Shown here: in pieces, positions 1,605 to 55,892 of the stretch
Layout of the letters: every line of letters begins with the position of its first letter
Numbering within the stretch: position 1 is the first letter of the stretch
Origin: an uncultured Chloroflexia bacterium
GTDB lineage: Bacteria; Chloroflexota; Limnocylindria; Limnocylindrales; CSP1-4
Direction of reading: 5' to 3'
DNA: 64,000 nucleotides
NCBI GenBank assembly: GCA_963789905.1
Contig: CAWBMK010000005.1
Span: forward strand, 14,387 to 78,386
Program-made: the position numbers and the translations under genes
Notes under the pieces: generated by a model
What the model saw: only the letters and a program-made list of their open reading frames with translations
Told to the model about the DNA's origin: nothing
The model's database searches: none

Positions 1605-2699
1605 GTGATGCGTGGCCTTTCAACCCTCACCGTCGCCAACGTCAAGTCGTTCCTTCGTGATCGCGCGGCGATCTTCTGGACGATCGCCTTTCCCCTGATC
1701 TTCGTCCTCATGTTCGGTTTCATCTTCCAGGGGGGCGGGTCGAACACGCTCACGATCGGCTGGGCTGACGTCGATGGCTCATCGGCGTCGGCCTCGCTCC
1801 GGGCGGCCTTCGCGCAGGTGCCCGATGTCGAGCTGGTCGACGGCTCGGAGGAGGTGGTCATCGGGCAGATGAAGGATGGCGACGTGGACGCGGTCATCGT
1901 CGTCCCGGCCGGTTACGGTGTGGCCGCCGCCGCGGCGTCGGCCGGCACGGGACCGCCCGCCAGCCTCGACGTTTACACGGACCCGGCTCAGCAGGCGCTC
2001 CAGGGGCAGGTCTACGGCATCGTCGGGAGCGTCATCGGGGTCGTCAACCTGGGCGGCCGACCGCCGCTCGTCGTGCCGGTACCCCAGACCATCGAGACCG
2101 AGGACGTCAACTTCATCAGCTACTTCGTGCCATCGGTTCTGGCCATGGCCCTCATGCAGCTCGGGATCTTTGCCGCCATCCCGCTCGTCGCGGACCGCGA
2201 GAAGCTGATCCTCAAGCGGCTGGCGGCCACGCCGCTGCGACGCTCTCAGCTCGTCGGCTCCAACGTTGCCATGCGGCTCATGGTGGCCGTCGTCCAGGCC
2301 GTCATCATCGTCGGTGTCGGCGTGCTCGTGTTCGGTGTGGAGATCATCGGCAGCCTCGCTTTGGCCGCCGTGTTCATCCTCCTGGGCTCGATGACGTTCA
2401 TCGCCCTGGGTTATGTCATCGCCTCGTTCACGGCGACGGAGGACGCCGCCAACGGGGCGACGAGCGTGGTCCAGTTCCCGCTGATGTTCCTGTCCGGGAT
2501 CTTCTTCCCGATCCAGGCCATGCCCGACTTTCTCCAGGCGATCGCCCGGATCATGCCCCTGACATACCTTGCCGACGCGCTCCGCCAGACGATGGTCGGC
2601 GGGGTCCCCTTCGCTCCACTATGGGTCGACTTTGGGGTCTTGGCCGTCTTCCTCGCAGTCTTCTTCGGGATCTCGTCGCGCTTCTTCCGCTGGCAGTAG
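1605..2699 (+). CDS. ABC-2 type transporter permease
   Basis: 364 aa; N-terminal TM, large extracytoplasmic loop, five or six C-terminal TM helices; directly follows the ATPase. Confidence 0.8.
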   Translation: MMRGLSTLTVANVKSFLRDRAAIFWTIAFPLIFVLMFGFIFQGGGSNTLTIGWADVDGSSASASLRAAFAQVPDVELVDGSEEVVIGQMKDGDVDAVIVVPAGYGVAAAAASAGTGPPASLDVYTDPAQQALQGQVYGIVGSVIGVVNLGGRPPLVVPVPQTIETEDVNFISYFVPSVLAMALMQLGIFAAIPLVADREKLILKRLAATPLRRSQLVGSNVAMRLMVAVVQAVIIVGVGVLVFGVEIIGSLALAAVFILLGSMTFIALGYVIASFTATEDAANGATSVVQFPLMFLSGIFFPIQAMPDFLQAIARIMPLTYLADALRQTMVGGVPFAPLWVDFGVLAVFLAVFFGISSRFFRWQ

Positions 2700-4359: not shown

Positions 4360-5058
4360 ATGCCGGATCGCGACCCCCACGCCGTCCTCGGAATACCGCG
4401 AGGCGCTAGCCGGGCGACCATCAAGGCGACGTGGCGGCGTCTCGCCCGCGAGCATCATCCAGACCTCGTTGGCGACGATGCGACGGCCAAGCGCCTTGCC
4501 ACTCGTCAGATGGCAGAGATCAATCGAGCCTATGAGCAGCTGAGCGGACCGACGGTCGCGGACCCGCCGTCGGCAGATCCACGGCGTCCCAGCGGACCTC
4601 CTCCGCCGCCCCCGGAACGGCCGGTGACAGGGCGCCTCGACACCACGGCGACGTTCCGGCCGCGCAACGCCACGACATCGCCGCCCGGCACGAGGGCTCA
4701 CCCGCCCGGCCAGGCACCCCCCGCCAGGGCCGCCGATCGGGAGCCCCCGAGGGCGTCGGACCCGACCGGGCCGCTCCACCGACGACGGTCCCGCAAGTTC
4801 CGGCGCCGGGAGGATCCGTCGCTTCTGGATGCTGCGGCTACCGAGCTGGCTTTCGGGCGGTTCCATGGCCATACGCTCGGCGAGGTGGCGGCCTTCGAGC
4901 CGTCCTACATCGACTGGCTCGCCCGCACCGTGACGCGGGATCCGGACCTGGTTGCGGCAGCCCGAGTCGTGAAGTCCGATCTCGATGAGCGTGGTGTCGT
5001 CCGCCGCACGCGACCTTCGATTCGGCCCAACGGGCACCCGTTCGAGCGATCGTTCTAG
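4360..5058 (+). CDS. J-domain (DnaJ-like) protein with Pro-rich linker and C-terminal domain
   Basis: N-terminal J domain with HPD motif (DPHAVLGIPRGASRATIKATWRRLAREHHPDLV), then a Pro/Arg-rich low-complexity linker. Confidence 0.7.
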   Translation: MPDRDPHAVLGIPRGASRATIKATWRRLAREHHPDLVGDDATAKRLATRQMAEINRAYEQLSGPTVADPPSADPRRPSGPPPPPPERPVTGRLDTTATFRPRNATTSPPGTRAHPPGQAPPARAADREPPRASDPTGPLHRRRSRKFRRREDPSLLDAAATELAFGRFHGHTLGEVAAFEPSYIDWLARTVTRDPDLVAAARVVKSDLDERGVVRRTRPSIRPNGHPFERSF

Positions 5059-19910: not shown

Positions 19911-22900
19911 GTGGCTGAGGTTCGATGCCCGTCCTGCGGAGAGGAGAATCCGGAGCGGGCGAAGTTCTGTCTCGAGTGCGGGGCGGCGCTGGGCGCGCCG
20001 GCGGCCGCACCTCGCGACGTGCGCAAGACCGTCACCATCCTCTTCGCCGATATCACCGGCTCGACCGAGTTGGGGGAGCGGCTCGACCCCGAGGCCGTCC
20101 GCACTCTGTTGGCCAGGTATTTCACTGCCATGCGGACCGTGATCGAACGACACGGGGGTACCGTCGAGAAGTTCATCGGCGACGCTGTCATGGCGGTGTT
20201 CGGCATCCCCGTTGCCCACGAGGACGACGCGTTGCGGGCCGCCCGCGCGGCTGTCGAAATGGGCGCGGCGCTCGAGCGGCTCGACGTCGAGCTCGGTGCG
20301 CGAATCCAGATCCGCACCGGCATCAACACGGGCCAGATCGTCGCTGGCTCGCCGGGTTCGCGGGAGACCCTGGTCACGGGTGATGCCGTCAATGTCGCCG
20401 CCCGCCTCGAACAGGCCGCCGGGCCGGACCAGATCCTGGTCGGCGAGACGACGGCACGACTGCTGCGCGACGTAGCCGATCTCGAGCGGCTCGAGCCGCT
20501 CGTCCTCAAGGGGAAGGCCAAGGCGGTGGGGGTGCACCGCCTCCACGGGCTGCGAACGGTGCCGGACGTGGCGCTGCTCCACGCAGAGACGCCGATGATC
20601 GGCCGGCAAGCCGAGCTGGCCGCCCTTCAGGGAGTCTTCGATGGAGTCGTCGCATTGGGCTCACCGCTGCTCGCGGCCGCCATCGGAACTGCCGGTGTCG
20701 GCAAGAGTCGCCTCGTCCGTGAGTTTCTCGCGTCGGTCGCAGAGCGGACCACTATCCTGCGCGGCCGCTGCCTCCCCTATGGCCAAGGCATCACGTTCTG
20801 GCCTATCGCCGAGATCGTGCGGCAGGCCGCAGTGATCGAGGAGGCGGACAGCGCGGAGCGTGCGCGTGCGCGCCTTCGCGAGCTTCTCGACGGCATGCCC
20901 GAGGCGACCCACGTCGGCGCCGCGCTCGAGGGGCTCCTTGGGCTTGGAGCGGGCGGCGGCTCCCCCGTTGAGGAGTTGTCGTGGGCGACGCGCCGTCTCC
21001 TCGAGTGGGTGGCCACCCCTTCGCCGCTGGTCGTCGTCATCGAGGACATCCACTGGGCCGAGCCAGCCTTGCTCGACCTCGTCGACCATATCCTGAGCCA
21101 TGGTCGCGCGCCTATCGTCGTCGTGACGCCATCCCGACCGGATATTCTCGAGACTCACCCGGCGTTCATATCGGGTCCGGACAGAGTCGTCGTCCATCTG
21201 GAGCCCCTCGCCGACGCTGCTGCACGTGAGCTGATCGAACGCCTGTTGCCTGGGCACGGCCACGTGGTCGAGTTGCGGGCTCGGATCGCCGAGGCAGCCG
21301 ATGGCAATCCCCTCTATGTCGAGGAACTTGTCGGGATGCTCGTCGATGGTGGGACCGTTCGACGCATCGATGGTGGCTGGGAGGTCGTCGGGTCGGCCGA
21401 CATCGTCTCGATGCCGCCGACCATCGGTGCCCTGCTTAGCGCGCGTCTCGATGGCCTCGGACCCGAGCGGACCGCAGCGGAGCGCGGTTCGGTCGTCGGC
21501 CGTGTGTTCGAGGCACGGGCGATTGCGCATCTCTCGGCGGATACGGCGCCGTCGGCGCTCTCCGAACAACTCGCCATCCTCGTTCGCAAGGACCTCATCC
21601 GCCTTGATTCGTCCATCATCGAGGAGGTTGCATACCGGTTCCGACACATCCTGATTCGTGATGCCGCCTATGGGTCGCTGGCCAAGGCCGAGCGCGCCCG
21701 CCTGCACGAGAGCCTGGGCACATGGCTTGAGGCGATTTCGGGCGATCGGCTCGCCGAGGTCGAGGAGATCGTTGGCTATCACCTCGAGCAAGCCGCGCTG
21801 TACCAGGGCGAGATTGGCTCGGCCGCCGAGGCACAGCGCTTGGCTCCCCTGGCCGCGCGACGGCTTGCCGCGGCGGCCACCCGAGCGGCCGACCGAGGCG
21901 ACATTCGCGCCGCGGCTAACCTTCTCGAGAGAGCCAGTGCGCTCCTGTCGCCCGACGATCCAGCGCGCGAAGCGATCCTCCTCGAGCTTGCCGTGGCCCT
22001 CGCGAGTTCGAATGACCGAAGCAGAGCCGGCGACATCCTCCGGGGCGTCCTCGATCGCGCAACGGATGCCAAGGACGCCATCACCCGAGCGAACGCGCTC
22101 GTCCAGCTGTGGGGTTTCGGCGACATAGCCAGTGAGGATCAAGCACGCATTCGCACAGGCGCTCGTGAGGCGATCTCGGTGCTCGAGGCTGCAGGCGATG
22201 AGCTGGGCCTTGCGCGAGCCTGGCGGCTGCTGGGCGACGCTCACTGGTTCGCCGGAGAGGCGGCGGCGGCCGAGGCGGCAATAGAGCGTTCGCTTGGCCA
22301 CGCTCGGCGCGCCCGACGCCAGAGCGACATCATCGTGGCCTTCGAGAATCTCAGCGCGATCCTCACCACGGGGCCGACGCCAGTCGACGTCGGGATCTCG
22401 CGCTGCGACGAGATCATGGAGTCGGAGGGTGACGATCGGATGGTTGGCGCGTGGATGGCCCATGCACTCGCGCATCTGCGTGCCAGGCGTGGCGACTTCG
22501 CCGAGGCGCGACGGCTCGCCGCGCTCAACAGGCGTGTGCTCGAGGACAACGGGCAGACGTATGAGCATGCGGTCATGGCCGAGCTCGTCGCCGACGTGGA
22601 GTACCACGCAGGCGACGCCTCGGCGGCCGTCGCGGTGCTGCGAGATGGTCTCGAGACGACGCGGCAACTCGGCAAGGCGAGTGCGGTCCTGGCGGCTCAT
22701 CTTGGCCATGTCGCCTGGCACGCCGGCGAGGTGGCTCTCGCTGAGGAGACCGCCGAGGATGGGATGGCGGCGGGCGGTTGGACCCGGGCGCTCACCGTTG
22801 GGACACTCGGTCGCGTCCGCGCGTCCCAGGGCAGCTACGACGAGGCGGAAGCGCTCGTCCGCGAAGGTCTCGCCTATTGGGAAACGACCGACTACCTGAC

Positions 22901-24016: not shown

Positions 24017-25549
24017 CCGCGTCGACGACCCCCGCCGTGGGCGCCACCGACGCTCGACCCGCGCCGAGCTTTCGCCTGTTCATCGCCGGCGAATGGGTCG
24101 AGTCCATCTCTGGGGCGAACGTTCGAGAGTCGCAACCCGGCCGACGTTCGCGACGTGGTCGGCCACTTTCAGGCGGGGAGCGCGCCCGACGTCGGGATGG
24201 CGATCAAGGCTGCCGAGATGGCATTTCCCGCCTGGCGGGCGATGCCGGCTCCGAAGCGGGGCGAGATCCTCTACCGGTTCGGCCAGCTCATGGCCGAGCA
24301 CAAGGAACGGCTTGCCCGGGCGCTCACCCGCGAGATGGGCAAGGTCATCGCCGAGGCCCGGGGCGACGTCCAGGAGGGCATCGACATCGCCTTCCTCATG
24401 GCCGGCGAGGGCCGCCGAATGTTCGGCGACACCGTGCCCTCGGAACTGCCCGACAAGTGGGCCATGAGCATCCGTCAGCCGCTCGGAGTCGCCGGCATCA
24501 TCACGCCCTGGAACTTCCCGATCGCGATCCCGTGCTGGAAGATGATGCCCGCCCTGGTCGCCGGCAATACGGTCGTCTTCAAGCCGGCGTCCGACACGCC
24601 CCACTGTGCGACGCTCCTCGTCGAGCTGATGGCCGAGGCCGGCTTCCCGCCCGGGACGGTCAATCTCGTCACCGGATCGGGCGCCGACGTCGGCGACTCG
24701 CTCGTCGAGTCGCCCGATGTCGCCGTCATCTCCTTCACCGGCCACTCGGCCAACGGCAAGCGGATCGCCGAGCGGGCCGGTCGCCGGCTCAAGCGCCTTT
24801 CGCTCGAGCTCGGGGGGAAGAACGCCATCGCCGTCCTGCGCGATGCCGATCTCGATCTGGCTGTCGAGGGCATCCTCTGGTCGGCCTTCGGGACGACGGG
24901 CCAGCGCTGTACGGCCTGTTCGCGCGTCGTCGTCGAGGACACGGTCGCCGATGAGCTGCTGTCGCGTCTTGAGGCGCGAGCGACGACCCTCCGGCTGGGC
25001 GACGGCCAGGATGCAACGACCGACGTCGGTCCGCTGATCAATGCGGCGGCCGTCGAGAAGGTCGAGAGCTACATCGACATCGGGCGAGCCGAGGCCGACC
25101 TCGTCGTGGGTGGTCGCCCGGCGGGCGGCGATGGGCTCGCCAACGGTCACTTCTTCGAGCCGACGATCTTCGGCGGCGTCCGGCCAATGGATCGGATCGG
25201 CCAGGAGGAGATCTTCGGCCCAGTCCTCGCCGTGATTCCGGTGGCCGACTATGCCGAGGCCGTGACCGCCGTCAACCAGGTTCGCTACGGCCTCTCGTCC
25301 TCGATCTATACCAGCGACGTGAACGCGGCCTTCCGGGCCATGCGCGACTTCGAGACCGGTATCGTCTACGTCAACGCCGGCACGACCGGGGCCGAGACCC
25401 ATCTGCCGTTCGGTGGCTGGAAGGAGACAGGCAACGGCCACCGCGAAGCCGGCCACGCCGCGCTCGATACGTACACCGAATGGAAGTCGATCTATGTCGA
25501 CTTCTCCGGCCGACTCCAGAAGGCCCAGATCGACAACCAGCCCTCGTAG
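24013..25549 (+). CDS. NAD(P)-dependent aldehyde dehydrogenase, with an apparent frameshift at codon ~36
   Basis: Frame 1 gives MTASTT...FRLFIAGEWVESISGA; frame 2 continues TFESRNPADVRDVVGHFQAG... through the catalytic ELGGKNA and Cys region; frames switch at the GGGG run around 24118-24128. Confidence 0.7.
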
Positions 25550-37559: not shown

Positions 37560-37611
37560 TTCGTTCACTGCCGCGAGGCGGAGGGCCCTGCGCTACCATG
37601 CCCCGGCTCGT

Positions 37612-37685
37612 GGGCCCGTAGCTCAACGGTAGAGCAAGTGACTCCTGATCAGTGGATGAAGGTTCGGATTCTTCCGGCCTCGCCA
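37612..37685 (+). tRNA. tRNA-like gene, anticodon CCT (Arg), probably degenerate
   Basis: Cloverleaf GGGCCCG/TA/GCTC-AACGGTA-GAGC/A/AGTGA-CTCCTGA-TCAGT/GGAT/GAAGG-TTCGGAT-TCTTC/CGGCCTC-G-CCA; G-G mismatch in the anticodon stem, C-C mismatch in the acceptor stem, G at T-loop position 58; the 5' 31 nt plus about 20 nt upstream are identical to tRNA-Lys at 39225. Confidence 0.4.
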
Positions 37686-39154: not shown

Positions 39155-39224
39155 GGCGAGCTCTCACTCAGGCCAGGTCGGCCGGGGGCCGACGAGAGCC
39201 GTGCGCTACTATTCCCCGGCTCGT

Positions 39225-39299
39225 GGGCCCGTAGCTCAACGGTAGAGCAAGTGACTCTTAATCACTAGGTTCTCGGTTCGAATCCGAGCGGGCTCACCA
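39225..39299 (+). tRNA. tRNA-Lys (anticodon CTT)
   Basis: Complete cloverleaf: acceptor GGGCCCG/CGGGCTC (one G-U pair), D arm GCTC-AACGGTA-GAGC, anticodon arm AGTGA-CTCTTAA-TCACT, T arm CTCGG-TTCGAAT-CCGAG, discriminator A, encoded CCA. Confidence 0.8.
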
Positions 39300-39322
39300 C
39301 GAATCTAGGCACGAAAAGGCCC

Positions 39323-39342
39323 CTTCGGTGTCCGCCGAAGGC
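39323..39342 (+). terminator. GC-rich hairpin downstream of tRNA-Lys
   Basis: CCTTCGG-tgtccg-CCGAAGG perfect 7 bp stem 24 nt after the tRNA; no U-tract. Confidence 0.3.
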
Positions 39343-39505
39343 ATCTCCGATGCCGCGCGCCCATCGGCGCACGCCCGACATTGTCGTGTACCGCGCGAGC
39401 GCCAGGCACAGGGAGGGCACCATCCCCCGAGAGCATGAAGATGCCGGTCGCCCAGGCGGAGGAGCTGGAAGCCCTGGACGGGCCTGACCACCCCTCGTTG
39501 CTAGC

Positions 39506-40711
39506 GTGCGTCGTGCGCGCCCCTTGTCCGCGGTGAACACTCGCGCCCGATTGGGGGCGGGCATCGTCGGGTGGCTGACCCTCCTCGCCATCGGCTGGAC
39601 AGGACTGCTCATCCCGTCGCTCGTCCGCTCGATCGAGGGGACCTTTGGGCAGACCGACGCGGGAATCGGAACCGTCTACCTGGCCTACGCCCTCGCCTAC
39701 GTCGCTGGTTCGTTCGGCGGCGGTTCCCTGGTCGAGCACCTCGGTCGTCGCACGGTCCTGGGCGGCGCGGTGGTCGTCCACGCGCTCGGCGTCGCCGGCC
39801 TCGGCCTGGCCCCCTCGTGGATGCTTTTCGTGGTGGCGGCGTTGACGGCGGGCGTCGGGGCTGGCTGCCTGGACGGCGGAGCAAATGGCCTCGTCCTCGA
39901 CGTCTACCGCGAGCGCCGCGGTCGGGCCATGAACCTGCTGCACGTGGCGTTCGGCGTCGGAGCCCTCGCCGCCCCCGTCGTCGTGGGCACCCTGGTGGAG
40001 GCCGGCGTCCCGTGGCAGGCCATCGCCGTGGGGACGGGTGTGGTCGTCTCGCTGCTGGCCATCGCTTATGCCGTTGTGCCGATGCCCAGCGGTCGGCAGA
40101 CGGCCGCAGCTGAAGGCACACCCGGGTCTGCGACCTCGGGCGGACGGGGTGGCCGCGGGGTGCTCGCTGGCCCTCTGCTGCTCCTCGGCATCGCGATCGC
40201 AACATACGTGGCATCGGAGGTCGGCGTCTCGAGCTGGCTCGTACGGTTCCTGGAACCGGCGCCGCTGACGACTGCGACCCTTGCCCTCTCGCTCTACTGG
40301 GCGGGGCTGACCGTCGGACGCCTCGTCTCGTCTGCCATCGCGGACCGATTCGACCACCGGCGGTTCACTATCGCCTGCGTGACGAGCTTGGCCGTGCTCA
40401 TCGCCGTCGCGGTGCTCGTCCCGAGCCTGCCGCTGTCGATTGTCGCCTTTGCGGTTGCCGGCGTCGCGTCAGGCCCGGTCTTCCCGATGATCCTTGCCAT
40501 CGGCGGCGACCACCACCCGGATCGATCGGCGGCCGTCGGCGGGTCTCTGGCCGGCATGGCGATCATCGGCTCGACGGTCTATCCGCCGTTGATGGGCTTC
40601 TTGTCCGTCACGGTCGGGCTGACGTTCGCCATGCTTGGCACCGTCGTGCTTGCGATCGCCAGCGCGGTCGCGCTCGTGGCCTTCGGCCGGGAGACGCGAC
40701 ACCGCGGCTGA
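39506..40711 (+). CDS. MFS transporter
   Basis: 401 aa, 12 predicted TM helices, MFS loop 2-3 pattern GGSLVEHLGRRTVLGG. Confidence 0.8.
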   Translation: MRRARPLSAVNTRARLGAGIVGWLTLLAIGWTGLLIPSLVRSIEGTFGQTDAGIGTVYLAYALAYVAGSFGGGSLVEHLGRRTVLGGAVVVHALGVAGLGLAPSWMLFVVAALTAGVGAGCLDGGANGLVLDVYRERRGRAMNLLHVAFGVGALAAPVVVGTLVEAGVPWQAIAVGTGVVVSLLAIAYAVVPMPSGRQTAAAEGTPGSATSGGRGGRGVLAGPLLLLGIAIATYVASEVGVSSWLVRFLEPAPLTTATLALSLYWAGLTVGRLVSSAIADRFDHRRFTIACVTSLAVLIAVAVLVPSLPLSIVAFAVAGVASGPVFPMILAIGGDHHPDRSAAVGGSLAGMAIIGSTVYPPLMGFLSVTVGLTFAMLGTVVLAIASAVALVAFGRETRHRG

Positions 40712-40962
40712 TCGATCCGGGCCAACCATGGACGGGAACCAGCCAAGACGACGGCCATTGGCACTGATCTGCCCGCGACGACGTCCGATCCCTTCACCGA
40801 GATAGTGCGTTGGCGATCCCGAGCTAGTCCCGGCCAGCCCGAGCGGAGGCGCCCGGGGGATTACCCGAATCCTTACCCCTGCGGGTGGTTTATGGGGGTA
40901 ATCGTGGACAATGGCGGACACCCTGCACGCTCGAAACGTGCAACCATGCGTGCTCGAGAAGG

Positions 40963-41008
40963 ACTCTTGATCACTAGGTTCAGGGTTCGAATCCCTGCGG
41001 GCTCACCA
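40963..41008 (+). repeat. orphan 3' half of a Lys-type tRNA (anticodon loop through CCA), no 5' half
   Basis: ACTCTTGATCACT-AGGT-TCAGGGTTCGAATCCCTG-CGGGCTC-A-CCA matches positions 32-76 of the tRNA-Lys at 39225, with compensatory T-stem changes (CTCGG/CCGAG to CAGGG/CCCTG); upstream sequence cannot form the D and acceptor arms. Confidence 0.5.
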
Positions 41009-41031
41009 CGAAGCCGGGTACAACATTCGGG

Positions 41032-41331
41032 ATGGCTGGCGTGATCGCCACGACGCTCAAGCAACCGAGCGCATTCATTCCGCTGGTGATGTCGCTCGCC
41101 GCCTTGGCTGTGCTTGTCGGTCACATCGTCTTTGTCGGCGTCGCCCGAGAGGCCGATGAAGGGACCGCCGCCCATCTCTGGCAGCTCCTCATGGCCGGAC
41201 AAATTCCGGTCATCGCATACTTCGCGATCACATGGCTGCCGCGCCGTCCGCGCGAAGTGCTGTTGGTCCTCGCGCTCCAGGTGGCTGCCTGGGTCGCTGC
41301 GGCTGCCCCGGTCTACCTCCTCGAGCTCTAG
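41032..41331 (+). CDS. small membrane protein (2-3 TM), hypothetical
   Basis: 99 aa, strongly hydrophobic, GC3-rich; followed by the hairpin GCGTC-gcgga-GACGC. Confidence 0.4.
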   Translation: MAGVIATTLKQPSAFIPLVMSLAALAVLVGHIVFVGVAREADEGTAAHLWQLLMAGQIPVIAYFAITWLPRRPREVLLVLALQVAAWVAAAAPVYLLEL

Positions 41332-42241
41332 CGTCGCGGAGACGCGTCCGGCGCAGGGCCGCAGCGTCTTTGGGAGGCCCACTGCAGAGACACCGCCGCG
41401 GCCAGCGCACGGGAGCCGATACGGCCCCTGAAACGACGAGAGGACCCGGCACCGCCGAGTCCTCTACAAACCCATTCGCGTCCCGGTCATGAGCCAATTT
41501 CGCGAACAGATCTGATGCGCCGCGATAGGCGTTTGACCCTGAACTGCGTTACCCGGCTTTGTCAGCTCCGGACCACGCCGTGGAGGACGACCTATCTGCA
41601 GTTAGCAGCCCTCGTGAAAGGACCGCCCGGCGGCTCGCTACACCGCCAGAACAGGAGCCGTAGGCCGACTCGGTCGGGTATCGACCCCTCTCGGGGCTGC
41701 CGGTCCCGACCGTTGCCGAGAACTCGTCCGGAACGCTAAGCCCAGGTATCGTCCCTCGAGGTTCGAGCGCCGCCCTCCGGCTTTGCCCTCTCCTCCCAGG
41801 CTTGAGCCCAGCGAGCCGGATCCATCCCCGAAACGGGTTGACAGATCCCGGTTCCTACTCCACCTGCACCCGACAAGGGTTCAGCCTCAGGGCAGTCCCA
41901 TCAGCATCGCCCCCATTCGTCCACCCCGCCCGTGGCGACACAGGTTGGGTGGGCGGCGGCAAATCTAGCACGTCGATCGCCTGTCGAAAAGCCGAAAGTA
42001 CTATCCCGCCGACATTACTTGTTGACAGATGTCACCATCGAGATCGACTCCTCCGCATTAGCCATATCCGCCACGGGCCTCCGCGCACTGGAATCTGCGC
42101 GATCCACTATCGCGAAGACGACGTATTCAAGGTGGACCCCTGGACGCAGTCCGACGTCCCAAGCTCGAGCTTCGGGAGCCTGGGCCACCCGGTCTGGCGG
42201 GCAACCGGGGGTCCACCCAGCGGCCCGTACACTCGTTCCGT

Positions 42242-42628
42242 ATGGGAAGCGACAATCGCTCGGCGGTGTCCCTGAAGCGGATGCACGTGGTCGCCGCCGC
42301 TTTGCTCGCCCTGTCCGGCGCGCAGGCGATCGTCTACGCAGGCCTCCTCCCCCTGGCGCCCTTCAGCGACGTGCCCGTCCCGATCGTCTGGCAGCTGTTC
42401 GGGATCGCCAGCCTGCTGGCGGCCGTAGGTGTCTACCTCGGCCGGACGTGGGGTCGCTGGCTGGGCGTGGTCGTAGTCGTGATCACGCTTGCGCTGGATG
42501 GACTGCCGACCGCTGCCGACGTGACTGCCTCGGGCTCGGCGATCCCGCTTCTTGTCTTGGCGGTCGGCGTCGCAATTCAGGTCGTCATCCTGTGGGTGCT
42601 ACTTCGTCGCTGGGCCATCGAGCAGTAG
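42242..42628 (+). CDS. small membrane protein (4 TM), hypothetical
   Basis: 128 aa with four hydrophobic helices, GC3-rich. Confidence 0.45.
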   Translation: MGSDNRSAVSLKRMHVVAAALLALSGAQAIVYAGLLPLAPFSDVPVPIVWQLFGIASLLAAVGVYLGRTWGRWLGVVVVVITLALDGLPTAADVTASGSAIPLLVLAVGVAIQVVILWVLLRRWAIEQ

Positions 42629-42645
42629 CGAGTCGCCGGTCGACG

Positions 42646-43005
42646 CTATGCCGAATTGGTCATCTCCGGCTCTGCGGTCTCGTCGACGATCGGCCACCAG
42701 CCGTGGCACAACACGACCTGATCGAGGTCGAGCTGCTCGCTGAGGAACACGCGGACACCATCCAGCCAGAAGGTTTCCTCGGGGCTGTCCTTGGGGTGTT
42801 TGAACAGCTCGGGGCGGCTGTCGAGGAGGAAGCGAGCCGTCTCGGGTCGCATGGCGAGCGCGACGTTGCTCTTGTCCCAGCGTTCGGCGTCGGCGAGCCT
42901 GGCCCGGTTGAGGAGGCCGCGGGCCCGTCCCAGCAACCCATCACGGCGGTCGGCCGCCGCATCACGCTGGCGGCGCGTCTCGGCTCGCTGATCCTCGGGC
43001 TTCAT
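42646..43005 (-). CDS. hypothetical protein
   Basis: 119 aa, soluble, codon usage consistent with the host; no recognisable motif. Confidence 0.4.
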   Translation of the reverse strand: MKPEDQRAETRRQRDAAADRRDGLLGRARGLLNRARLADAERWDKSNVALAMRPETARFLLDSRPELFKHPKDSPEETFWLDGVRVFLSEQLDLDQVVLCHGWWPIVDETAEPEMTNSA

Positions 43006-50698: not shown

Positions 50699-51368
50699 CG
50701 CTCAACCGGTAGCCGACGCCACGCACCGTCTCGACCCGAGACCCGGCGGGCCCGAGCTTCGTGCGCAGGTAATGGACGTACGCTTCGACCGCATTGGGAG
50801 TGATCGCAACGCCGAACGGCCAGGCCTGATCGAGGAGCTGGTCGCGGGTCAGGACCTGGCCCGGGTGCCTGAGGAAGCACTCGAGGAGCGAGAACTCGCG
50901 TGGGCTGAGGTCGACGAGGGCGCCGTCCACGGTGACACGCCGGCCGATCTCGTCGAGGGCGATGGGGCCGACCGAGAGGATCGGGGCCGGGCGACGCGGT
51001 CCGTTCGATGCGCGCCTGGCCAGGGCTCGCAGGCGGGCCGAGAGCTCCTCGTACGCGAACGGTTTGACGAGGTAGTCGTCGGCCCCCGAATCGAGGCCGC
51101 GGACTCGGTCGCCGACGGTGTCGCGGGCTGTGAGCATGAGGATCGCGACGTCGACCTTGTCGTTGCGCAGTCGGCGGGCGACCTCGAGACCGGAGATGTC
51201 GGGCAGGCCGATGTCGAGGATGACGGCGTCGAAGCCACCGTTGGCTGACGCCAGCTCGAGGGCGGTCTCCCCGTCCTCGGCCGCATCCACGACGTGGCGA
51301 TCTTCCTCGAGAAGCCGGGTGAGGACGCGCCGCAGCCGGGCGTCGTCCTCAACCAGCAACAGGTGCAT
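50691..51368 (-). CDS. OmpR-family response regulator
   Basis: Receiver LLLVEDD...DAVILDIGLPDISG, winged-helix output RVETVRGVGYRL. Confidence 0.9.
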   Translation of the reverse strand: MHLLLVEDDARLRRVLTRLLEEDRHVVDAAEDGETALELASANGGFDAVILDIGLPDISGLEVARRLRNDKVDVAILMLTARDTVGDRVRGLDSGADDYLVKPFAYEELSARLRALARRASNGPRRPAPILSVGPIALDEIGRRVTVDGALVDLSPREFSLLECFLRHPGQVLTRDQLLDQAWPFGVAITPNAVEAYVHYLRTKLGPAGSRVETVRGVGYRLSDA

Positions 51369-51382
51369 GGGTCAGCCGCCGC

Positions 51383-52030
51383 TCACGGGACGACCGTCAC
51401 GTCCTCGGCGTCGAGCGAGAAGCCGCCGCCCTGGCCGCCGCTCTGACCGCCGCCGGCCCCGACCCGGACGACGACCTTGGAGCCGCTGGTGACAGCCGAA
51501 GCCGTGGTGTCGGTGGCCGTGTGGTAGGCGGTGTCGTTGTCGAGGCTGATCTCGATCGAGTTGCCATCCTCGGTCTTGACGGTGACGCTGTCCGCGTCGA
51601 CCGACTCCACCGTTCCCTCGATGGCGATCCCTCCGCCGGCGCCGAAGAAGCGTCCGCCCTGCGGGCCTTGACCGCCCTGGCCGGGGAAGCCCTGGCCGCC
51701 CTGGCCCGGTACGCCCTGGCCGCCCTGGCCGGGGAAGCCCTGGCCACCGCCGGGAGCATTCGCCCGCAGCTCGTCCAGCGCGGAGGGCGCCGTCGCCCGC
51801 CCGGCTGCGAACGATACGCCGGCGACAGCGACCACAAGCGCGCCCATCAGGGCGACGTTCAGCCAGCGGGTCGCCGGTCGCGAGGCCGGTGACGGAGGAG
51901 CCGGAGACGGTGCGAGGGGAGCTGGAGCCTGAGGTGCGGCCGGTGCCTCGACAGGTGGCGTCCACTGGGGTGCCGCCGGCGTGGCGCCGGGATCCGGTTG
52001 CGGGGTCGTGCCCTGGGATGGGGTCTGCAT
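51383..52030 (-). CDS. membrane-anchored Pro-rich, Gly/Gln-repeat protein with a DUF5666-like C-terminal domain
   Basis: Pro-rich N-terminus, one TM, GGQGFPGQGGQGVPGQGGQGFPGQGGQGPQGG repeat (18-bp DNA tandem), then GTVESVDADSVTVKTEDGNSIEISLDNDTAYH, paralogous to the 55158-55892 protein. Confidence 0.6.
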   Translation of the reverse strand: MQTPSQGTTPQPDPGATPAAPQWTPPVEAPAAPQAPAPLAPSPAPPSPASRPATRWLNVALMGALVVAVAGVSFAAGRATAPSALDELRANAPGGGQGFPGQGGQGVPGQGGQGFPGQGGQGPQGGRFFGAGGGIAIEGTVESVDADSVTVKTEDGNSIEISLDNDTAYHTATDTTASAVTSGSKVVVRVGAGGGQSGGQGGGFSLDAEDVTVVP

Positions 52031-55060: not shown

Positions 55061-55157
55061 GACACTCCAGTTTGGCCTTTGAGCTGAGAACGTGTTGAGA
55101 GTCGGCTGGCGAAGATGAGCGCGCCGACCGTCTGGTCGGCGCGCCCTGGGAAGGGGA

Positions 55158-55892
55158 TTACGACGTAGTGGTGGACGCCGAGGGGCTCGGTGAGGCACCG
55201 GGCGCCACGTCCCAGCCACCCGGGCCGTGGAACCCACGACCGCCGAAACCCGCGGCGACAGCGTCGGCGTCGAGCGAGCCGTCGGATCGGAGCGTCCCGG
55301 ACGCGATCACGATCATGCCGACCGAGATGTCGCCCAGGTTCGCATCGGTCGCGCCTGGCACCCGATATGTCGTATCGCCGTCGGTGTGGACGGTGCTGCT
55401 GGTCCCGTCCATCTGTAGCACGGTGATCGAGGAGTCACTCTTGGCCGTCACGGTGCCAACGACGTGCGGCATGACGACGCGAATCGCGGTGACGGTGTAG
55501 GTGCCGTCGGCGTTCTTCGTCTGGGCAAGACGGATGTCGTCGCCCACCTTGAGATCGGTGACCTTGATCGTGTCGTTGCCTTTCGTGATCGTCGTCGAGC
55601 TCGTGAGGGTGATCGTCCGGGTCCACCCGTCGTCGGTCTTGAGAGAGATGTTGGAACCGTCGATGGCGGTGATCGAGATCGGGCCAGCGACACCGCCACC
55701 ACGGCCGGGTCCGCCTGGCCCGAACCCGAATTCGATGTCGGGCGATGCCGCGGTCGGTGATGCGACGGGGGCCGCCAGGACGGCGACTGCCGAGCCGAGC
55801 AGCGCGAGGGTCGCCCCGATCACGATGGCGATCCGGACCGCTCGGGGACCGCTTCGACGGGGCATGGTGCTGGTGGTTGGGAGTTCCTGCAT
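55158..55892 (-). CDS. secreted DUF5666-like repeat protein
   Basis: Signal/TM RIAIVIGATLALLGSAVAVLAA; repeated units ISITAIDGSNISLKTDDGWTRTITL and GTVTAKSDSSITVLQMDGTSSTVHTDGDTTYR. Confidence 0.6.
   Translation of the reverse strand: MQELPTTSTMPRRSGPRAVRIAIVIGATLALLGSAVAVLAAPVASPTAASPDIEFGFGPGGPGRGGGVAGPISITAIDGSNISLKTDDGWTRTITLTSSTTITKGNDTIKVTDLKVGDDIRLAQTKNADGTYTVTAIRVVMPHVVGTVTAKSDSSITVLQMDGTSSTVHTDGDTTYRVPGATDANLGDISVGMIVIASGTLRSDGSLDADAVAAGFGGRGFHGPGGWDVAPGASPSPSASTTTS

Follow-up and report, generated by a model that had tools for sequence, protein, structure and literature searches.

The window analysed here, a stretch of DNA of 64 kb, contains at 41335-42240 a segment of 906 bp, which lies between two open reading frames (ORFs) on the plus strand encoding proteins of 99 aa (41032-41331) and 128 aa (42242-42628). 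In the original prediction, this segment had been described as devoid of a protein-like ORF and of the third-position GC bias, and both statements were borne out. The difference between the maximum and the minimum GC content of the codon positions is 0.03-0.17 at 41370-42180 compared to 0.3-0.47 in the flanking genes. A codon-usage log-likelihood score, for which 24 long ORFs of the window served as the training set, is below zero in six of six frames at 41341-42210 and above zero exactly across both flanking genes. Stop codons are found in all frames. On two independent contigs of the same species (Logan), the flanking proteins are identical and gene callers leave the same gap of approximately 909 bp, so that neither a single assembly nor the ORF reading can account for the gap. 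Flanking genes identical to those of the window are found in ERR12036786 and ERR15459708. The segment is hence treated as a non-coding spacer and is not assigned to a strand. Its GC content, which had been reported as lower, is 0.651 and thus indeed below that of the window (0.687 or 68.7%), but within the range of the other spacers of the window (0.56-0.70). The plus strand is rich in C (0.363, compared to 0.288 for G).

Small protein genes of atypical composition, missed by the gene callers, are highly improbable inside 41335-42240. The region does contain ORFs of 57-157 aa, and the crude codon measure gives low values for some real genes as well, such as the J-domain ORF at 4360-5058. However, the codon score is negative in every frame, the gap was left empty by gene callers on three assemblies, and the translations are rich in Arg, Pro and Ser, as is typical of out-of-frame reading in high-GC DNA. 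Moreover, a six-frame query, in which all stop-free segments of at least 35 aa were concatenated (1476 aa), gave no match among 5.8 billion proteins at E<=0.01. Spurious ORFs annotated on homologous DNA in relatives would also have appeared in this search. The region does not code.

Left of the 99-aa gene, an intact tRNA-Lys(CTT) gene (39225-39299, plus strand) is accompanied by a displaced tRNA-Lys 3' fragment (40962-41021, plus strand), which is 85% identical to 39253-39312 over 60 nt. The fragment begins at the anticodon loop, ends 13 nt beyond the CCA and shows compensatory changes in the T-stem; on its 5' side, at the anticodon loop, the similarity to the tRNA breaks off sharply. No third copy is present in the window. 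The Islander definition places an island between the tRNA gene that was regenerated and the fragment that was displaced (PMC4383910), and such a direct repeat of regenerated tRNA and displaced fragment is found here, delimiting 39253-41021. Judged by its sequence, the repeat pair is the signature of an integration into a tRNA gene. The enclosed 1.7-kb segment harbors a single gene, encoding an MFS transporter (39506-40711), and 250 bp of non-coding DNA, while no tyrosine integrase was found between the repeats. Since only 1.7 kb with the transporter and no integrase are present, 39253-41021 appears to be a stripped-down island remnant. The locus is similar to Islander-type tRNA island scars (PMC4383910) in having an intact tRNA-Lys(CTT) and an 85%-identical copy of its 3' part, but differs from Islander-type islands in this small size and gene content, and in that the ORF-free region is situated outside, at a distance of 314 bp on the right side of the fragment. 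The orphan tRNA half that had been noted beside the region is thus real and adjoins it, but marks the end of an island lying to the left of the region rather than around it.

A second tRNA gene, tRNA-Arg(CCT) at 37612, lies 1.6 kb from tRNA-Lys(CTT). Both have the 5' half up to the anticodon and 31 upstream nucleotides in common (37581-37685 and 39194-39299; 92% identity over 71 nt), whereas their 3' halves are unrelated. The tRNA-Arg(CCT) contains two non-canonical pairs (acceptor position 4 and anticodon-stem position 2) and scores 46 bits versus 73. It has the appearance of a chimeric tRNA generated through recombination at the anticodon loop, possibly an impaired one. As far as can be read from these similarities, the tRNA locus has clearly been reshuffled at the anticodon loops.

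The 99-aa protein is hydrophobic and a member of a large, conserved family without a Pfam match. It has 3369 homologues of approximately 96 aa; among the matches listed, the best 120 or so are 54-84% identical, and the few source names given are Dormibacteraeota, Chloroflexi and Vicinamibacterales MAGs. In 87 loci with homologues of this gene, the contexts differ and no consistent tRNA neighbour is present. None of these loci contains a counterpart of the region next to the gene, the DNA similarity ending not more than 20 nt past the stop codon. At the three nearest loci that extend past the gene (81-85% nucleotide identity), the next gene follows 72-201 nt downstream. The 128-aa membrane protein, which has a sub-threshold match to DUF2127, has only three homologues among 5.8 billion proteins (49-59% identity), each in an unrelated context; both flanking genes for small membrane proteins are found in a different context in every relative fetched. 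Viral relatives were found for neither of the two genes. When a conserved upstream anchor gene was compared to 185,579 species genomes, the nearest relative was a Candidatus Limnocylindrales MAG (87% amino acid identity), which has only the anchor gene in common with the window and no downstream synteny. The homologous intergenic region anticipated by the original prediction was thus not found in any of the 170 loci fetched; none of these is a syntenic locus of the same genus, which makes the conservation test uninformative rather than negative.

Several features of the setting would fit a still recognisable remnant of one particular gene or mobile element, for instance an IS, a MITE or the integrase of a tRNA-Lys island. 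The region adjoins the displaced tRNA-Lys fragment, its neighbour genes are accessory-like, and its GC content is slightly under the genome mean. Nevertheless, this origin is unlikely. The island defined by the Islander rule ends at 41021 and the region lies beyond the displaced fragment. In ten stop-free segments (57-203 aa, all frames) compared to Pfam, PHROGs and NCBIfam at E<=1, nothing was detected beyond two chance-level PHROG matches, and no integrase or transposase profile was among the results; the search of 5.8 billion proteins was equally empty. Only noise was obtained when the region was compared by tblastx to the remainder of the window, and blastn against the window and collections of phages and plasmids yielded one chance match of 37 nt (plasmids). 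Further copies of the region were found neither in the window nor in phages, plasmids or 166 loci, and the region contains no tandem repeats. No inverted repeats at both ends and no target-site duplications were seen. In the sequence searched, the region is therefore unlike an IS or a MITE, which would be expected to have terminal inverted repeats with a target-site duplication and multiple copies. It resembles bacterial pseudogenes and eroded remnants in lacking codon periodicity, in containing stops in all frames and in its spacer-like GC content. A pseudogene is by definition derived from a recognisable functional homologue, and in this respect the region differs, as none was found in any frame. 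The decayed element considered in the original prediction fits the setting but is reached by default, since no frame matches any protein or family.

Large ornate non-coding RNAs are often found near tRNAs, and the region had also been proposed as a candidate for such an RNA. It is similar to GOLLD, ROOL, HEARO, OLE and raiA as well as RNase P, tmRNA and 6S RNA in its length class (hundreds of nucleotides), in being free of ORFs and in its proximity to tRNA sequence. All of these families are included in the Rfam 15 library, along with riboswitches and group I and II introns. At gathering thresholds, only tRNA-Arg and tRNA-Lys were identified in the 64 kb and nothing in 41335-42240. With permissive filters (E<=10, both strands of 40600-42700), no family match was obtained inside the region either, the best score there being 20 bits for a 21-nt viral pseudoknot model with a cut-off of 35 bits. 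ARAGORN identified no tRNA or tmRNA inside 41335-42240. In contrast to the known families, the region thus matches no covariance model even at E<=10, and it shows no region-wide excess of structure.

The fold of the whole region has z values of -1.75 on the plus and -2.98 on the minus strand (20 shuffles each). In a scan with 200-nt windows, for which 154 control windows elsewhere in the 64 kb gave a mean z of -0.06 (sd 1.0, minimum -3.7), the middle 500 nt of the region were no better than shuffles (z -1.8 to +2.6). One outlier site was found on the minus strand at 41400-41599 (z -3.45 with 200 shuffles). A second site on the same strand, 42100-42299, was dropped, as its z of -3.14 with 30 shuffles changed to -1.34 with 200 shuffles. 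The most stable local fold of the region is located at 41400-41525 on the minus strand, with boundaries picked after the scan. It is predicted to be a 126-nt four-way junction with a closing stem of 8 bp and hairpins of 14, 12 and 7 bp (-66.8 kcal/mol, z -4.45), and none of 200 shuffles was as stable. The plus strand reaches a z of only -2.64; the gap is largely due to four G-U pairs in one helix. The fold was also placed in a two-stage ranking, in which 4260 overlapping 126-nt windows from both strands of the 64 kb were ordered by composition-adjusted energy and z was calculated for the top 30. Here, 41400-41525 was 8th of 4260 by energy (top 0.2%) and 5th by z (-4.92). Four loci were equal or stronger in z, 2341-2466 (minus), 24631-24756 (plus), 22501-22626 (plus) and 51211-51336 (plus), and two more were close behind (z -4.55 and -4.38). 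Such folds occur approximately once per 9 kb of this genome, which corresponds to a roughly 10% chance of finding one in any 0.9 kb. Among the strong folds elsewhere in the window, 2341-2466 (minus), 22501-22626 (plus), 24631-24756 (both strands), 51211-51336 (plus), 21721-21846 (minus) and 55111-55236 (minus) have z values from -4.3 to -5.7; the one at 24631-24756 lies within an ORF (24155-25549).

These data bear on the possibility that the G-rich minus strand encodes a lineage-specific structured small RNA, the core of which would be the four-way junction of approximately 126 nt at 41400-41525. The stability and high rank of the predicted fold, the z of -2.98 for the whole minus strand and the four G-U pairs, which by inspection extend one helix on this strand only, are in favour of such an RNA. 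It is nonetheless improbable, given the lack of an Rfam match, the frequency of comparable folds in the window and the choice of boundaries after the scan. Moreover, when 394 kb, among them loci of related MAGs, were searched with a covariance model of the 126-nt fold, no further copy was detected, and a promoter scan of both strands of the region gave 0 sites. We consider it quite doubtful that a soil bacterium resembling Limnocylindria encodes here a new structured RNA restricted to its lineage, with the core at 41400-41525 on the minus strand and possibly as part of a longer transcript over much of the spacer. If it were real, it would be a species-restricted small RNA of an uncultured soil lineage, and of modest interest unless conservation or a linked function came with it. 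With regard to the original prediction, one strong local fold was thus found, but the z of the whole region is modest, folds at least as good occur at four other loci of the window and no Rfam family matches, so that the proposal of a non-coding RNA is not supported.

Closer to the right end of the region, a branched stem-loop with 13-nt arms (GGTGGACCCCTGG and CCGGGGGTCCACC) is predicted at 42131-42217 on the plus strand, with 24 nt between its end and the ATG of the 128-aa gene. It might act as an attenuator or binding platform if the spacer served as a long 5' leader or regulatory region of this gene. As both flanking genes have plus orientation, transcripts reading through from the 99-aa gene would span the region. 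Such a leader is rather unlikely, however. The stem-loop is not unusual (z -1.67 on the plus strand, where 11 of 200 shuffles were as good, and -2.20 on the minus strand), and no riboswitch or leader match was found in Rfam. The sequences upstream of the homologues of the 128-aa gene are unrelated, and at one of these loci (L002) the upstream gene overlaps the start. By inspection, a -10-like TACACT is present at 42228-42233, only 8 nt before the ATG, which suggests a proximal promoter, and no Shine-Dalgarno sequence precedes the gene. The position of this hexamer together with the missing Shine-Dalgarno sequence suggests a leaderless mRNA, or one with a very short leader, for the 128-aa protein.

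Two short motifs had been put forward as signs of a special element. The decamer GTTGACAGAT does recur on the plus strand, with the second copy at 42021-42030 as reported, but the first copy is located at 41837-41846 instead of 41838-41847 and the spacing is 184 instead of 183. The decamer itself is rare in the window. What matters is whether a stretch of 906 nt contains a repeat of any 10-mer, and among 1000 shuffles that preserved the dinucleotides of the region, 52.8% had an exact direct repeat of at least 10 nt. The palindrome CGCGAT-ccact-ATCGCG (42098-42114, not assigned to a strand) is located exactly as given before, but is likewise at chance level, two perfect 6-bp hairpins being observed and 2.1 expected. 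Neither copy of the TTGACA embedded in the decamer has a -10 partner at a distance of 16-18 nt. Decamer and palindrome carry no information and lend no weight to a special element. An integron cassette with an attC site was considered and rejected by inspection, since GTTGACA does not fit GTTRRRY, no downstream structure is common to relatives and no integrase is present. Elsewhere in the window, at 51656-51748, a repeat with a period of 24 nt (GCCCTGGCCGCC...) comprises three overlapping copies, which are 78-84% identical.

In our view, the most plausible account of 41335-42240, and one we hold to be probably correct, is that of a long spacer, non-coding and specific to the lineage, which lies in a variable neighbourhood scarred by recombination and most likely consists of eroded DNA with only the signals of its neighbours. 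The absence of codon periodicity and of RNA families, the chance-level motifs and a composition equal to that of other spacers are in agreement with this. The variability of the setting is reflected by the displaced tRNA-Lys fragment, the chimeric tRNA-Arg and the differing contexts of the flanking genes. The region would then be leftover DNA downstream of tRNA-Lys, neither a discrete RNA gene nor an identifiable mobile element. The hairpins at 41400-41525 could function as transcript end or stability signals after the 99-aa gene, the end of the region would contain the promoter region of the 128-aa gene, and the remainder might be neutral sequence stemming from gene loss or from an old integration or deletion event. 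We infer that the spacer was eroded from something, although no ancestor sequence was found.

Several observations do not fit easily with eroded spacer DNA. A positive sign of decay is lacking, as no frame matches any of the 5.8 billion proteins or a profile in Pfam, PHROGs or NCBIfam, and neither inverted-repeat ends nor target duplications are present. With its fold, 41400-41525 (minus strand) ranks among the top 0.2% of windows, and G-U pairs make this fold strand-asymmetric. The lack of conservation is due to poor sampling no less than to a lack of constraint. Furthermore, bacteria tend to delete useless DNA, so that a neutral spacer of 0.9 kb requires either a recent origin or some function. 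According to the original prediction, a stretch with no structure, no homologue and no transcription would be simply decayed DNA; by this rule, decayed DNA is what is left here, as a default and not as a positive result.

That a long stretch without ORFs adjoins a tRNA fragment in a high-GC MAG does not by itself constitute evidence for an RNA gene, and short repeats and 6-bp palindromes of the size found here are to be expected by chance. The more informative biology is found next door, where the chimeric pair of tRNA-Arg and tRNA-Lys and the displaced tRNA-Lys fragment appear to record recombination at anticodon loops. Just before this fragment, GTGCTCG can pair with the 3' strand of the fragment's acceptor stem, resulting in a tRNA-like shape without a D-arm (40950-41005). 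In Rfam, it scores 19 bits with the tRNA and 22 bits with the mascRNA model, both under the threshold. Upstream of it, a hairpin (GATTACCC...GGGTAATC) is located at 40858-40905; both the hairpin and the tRNA-like shape are probably incidental.
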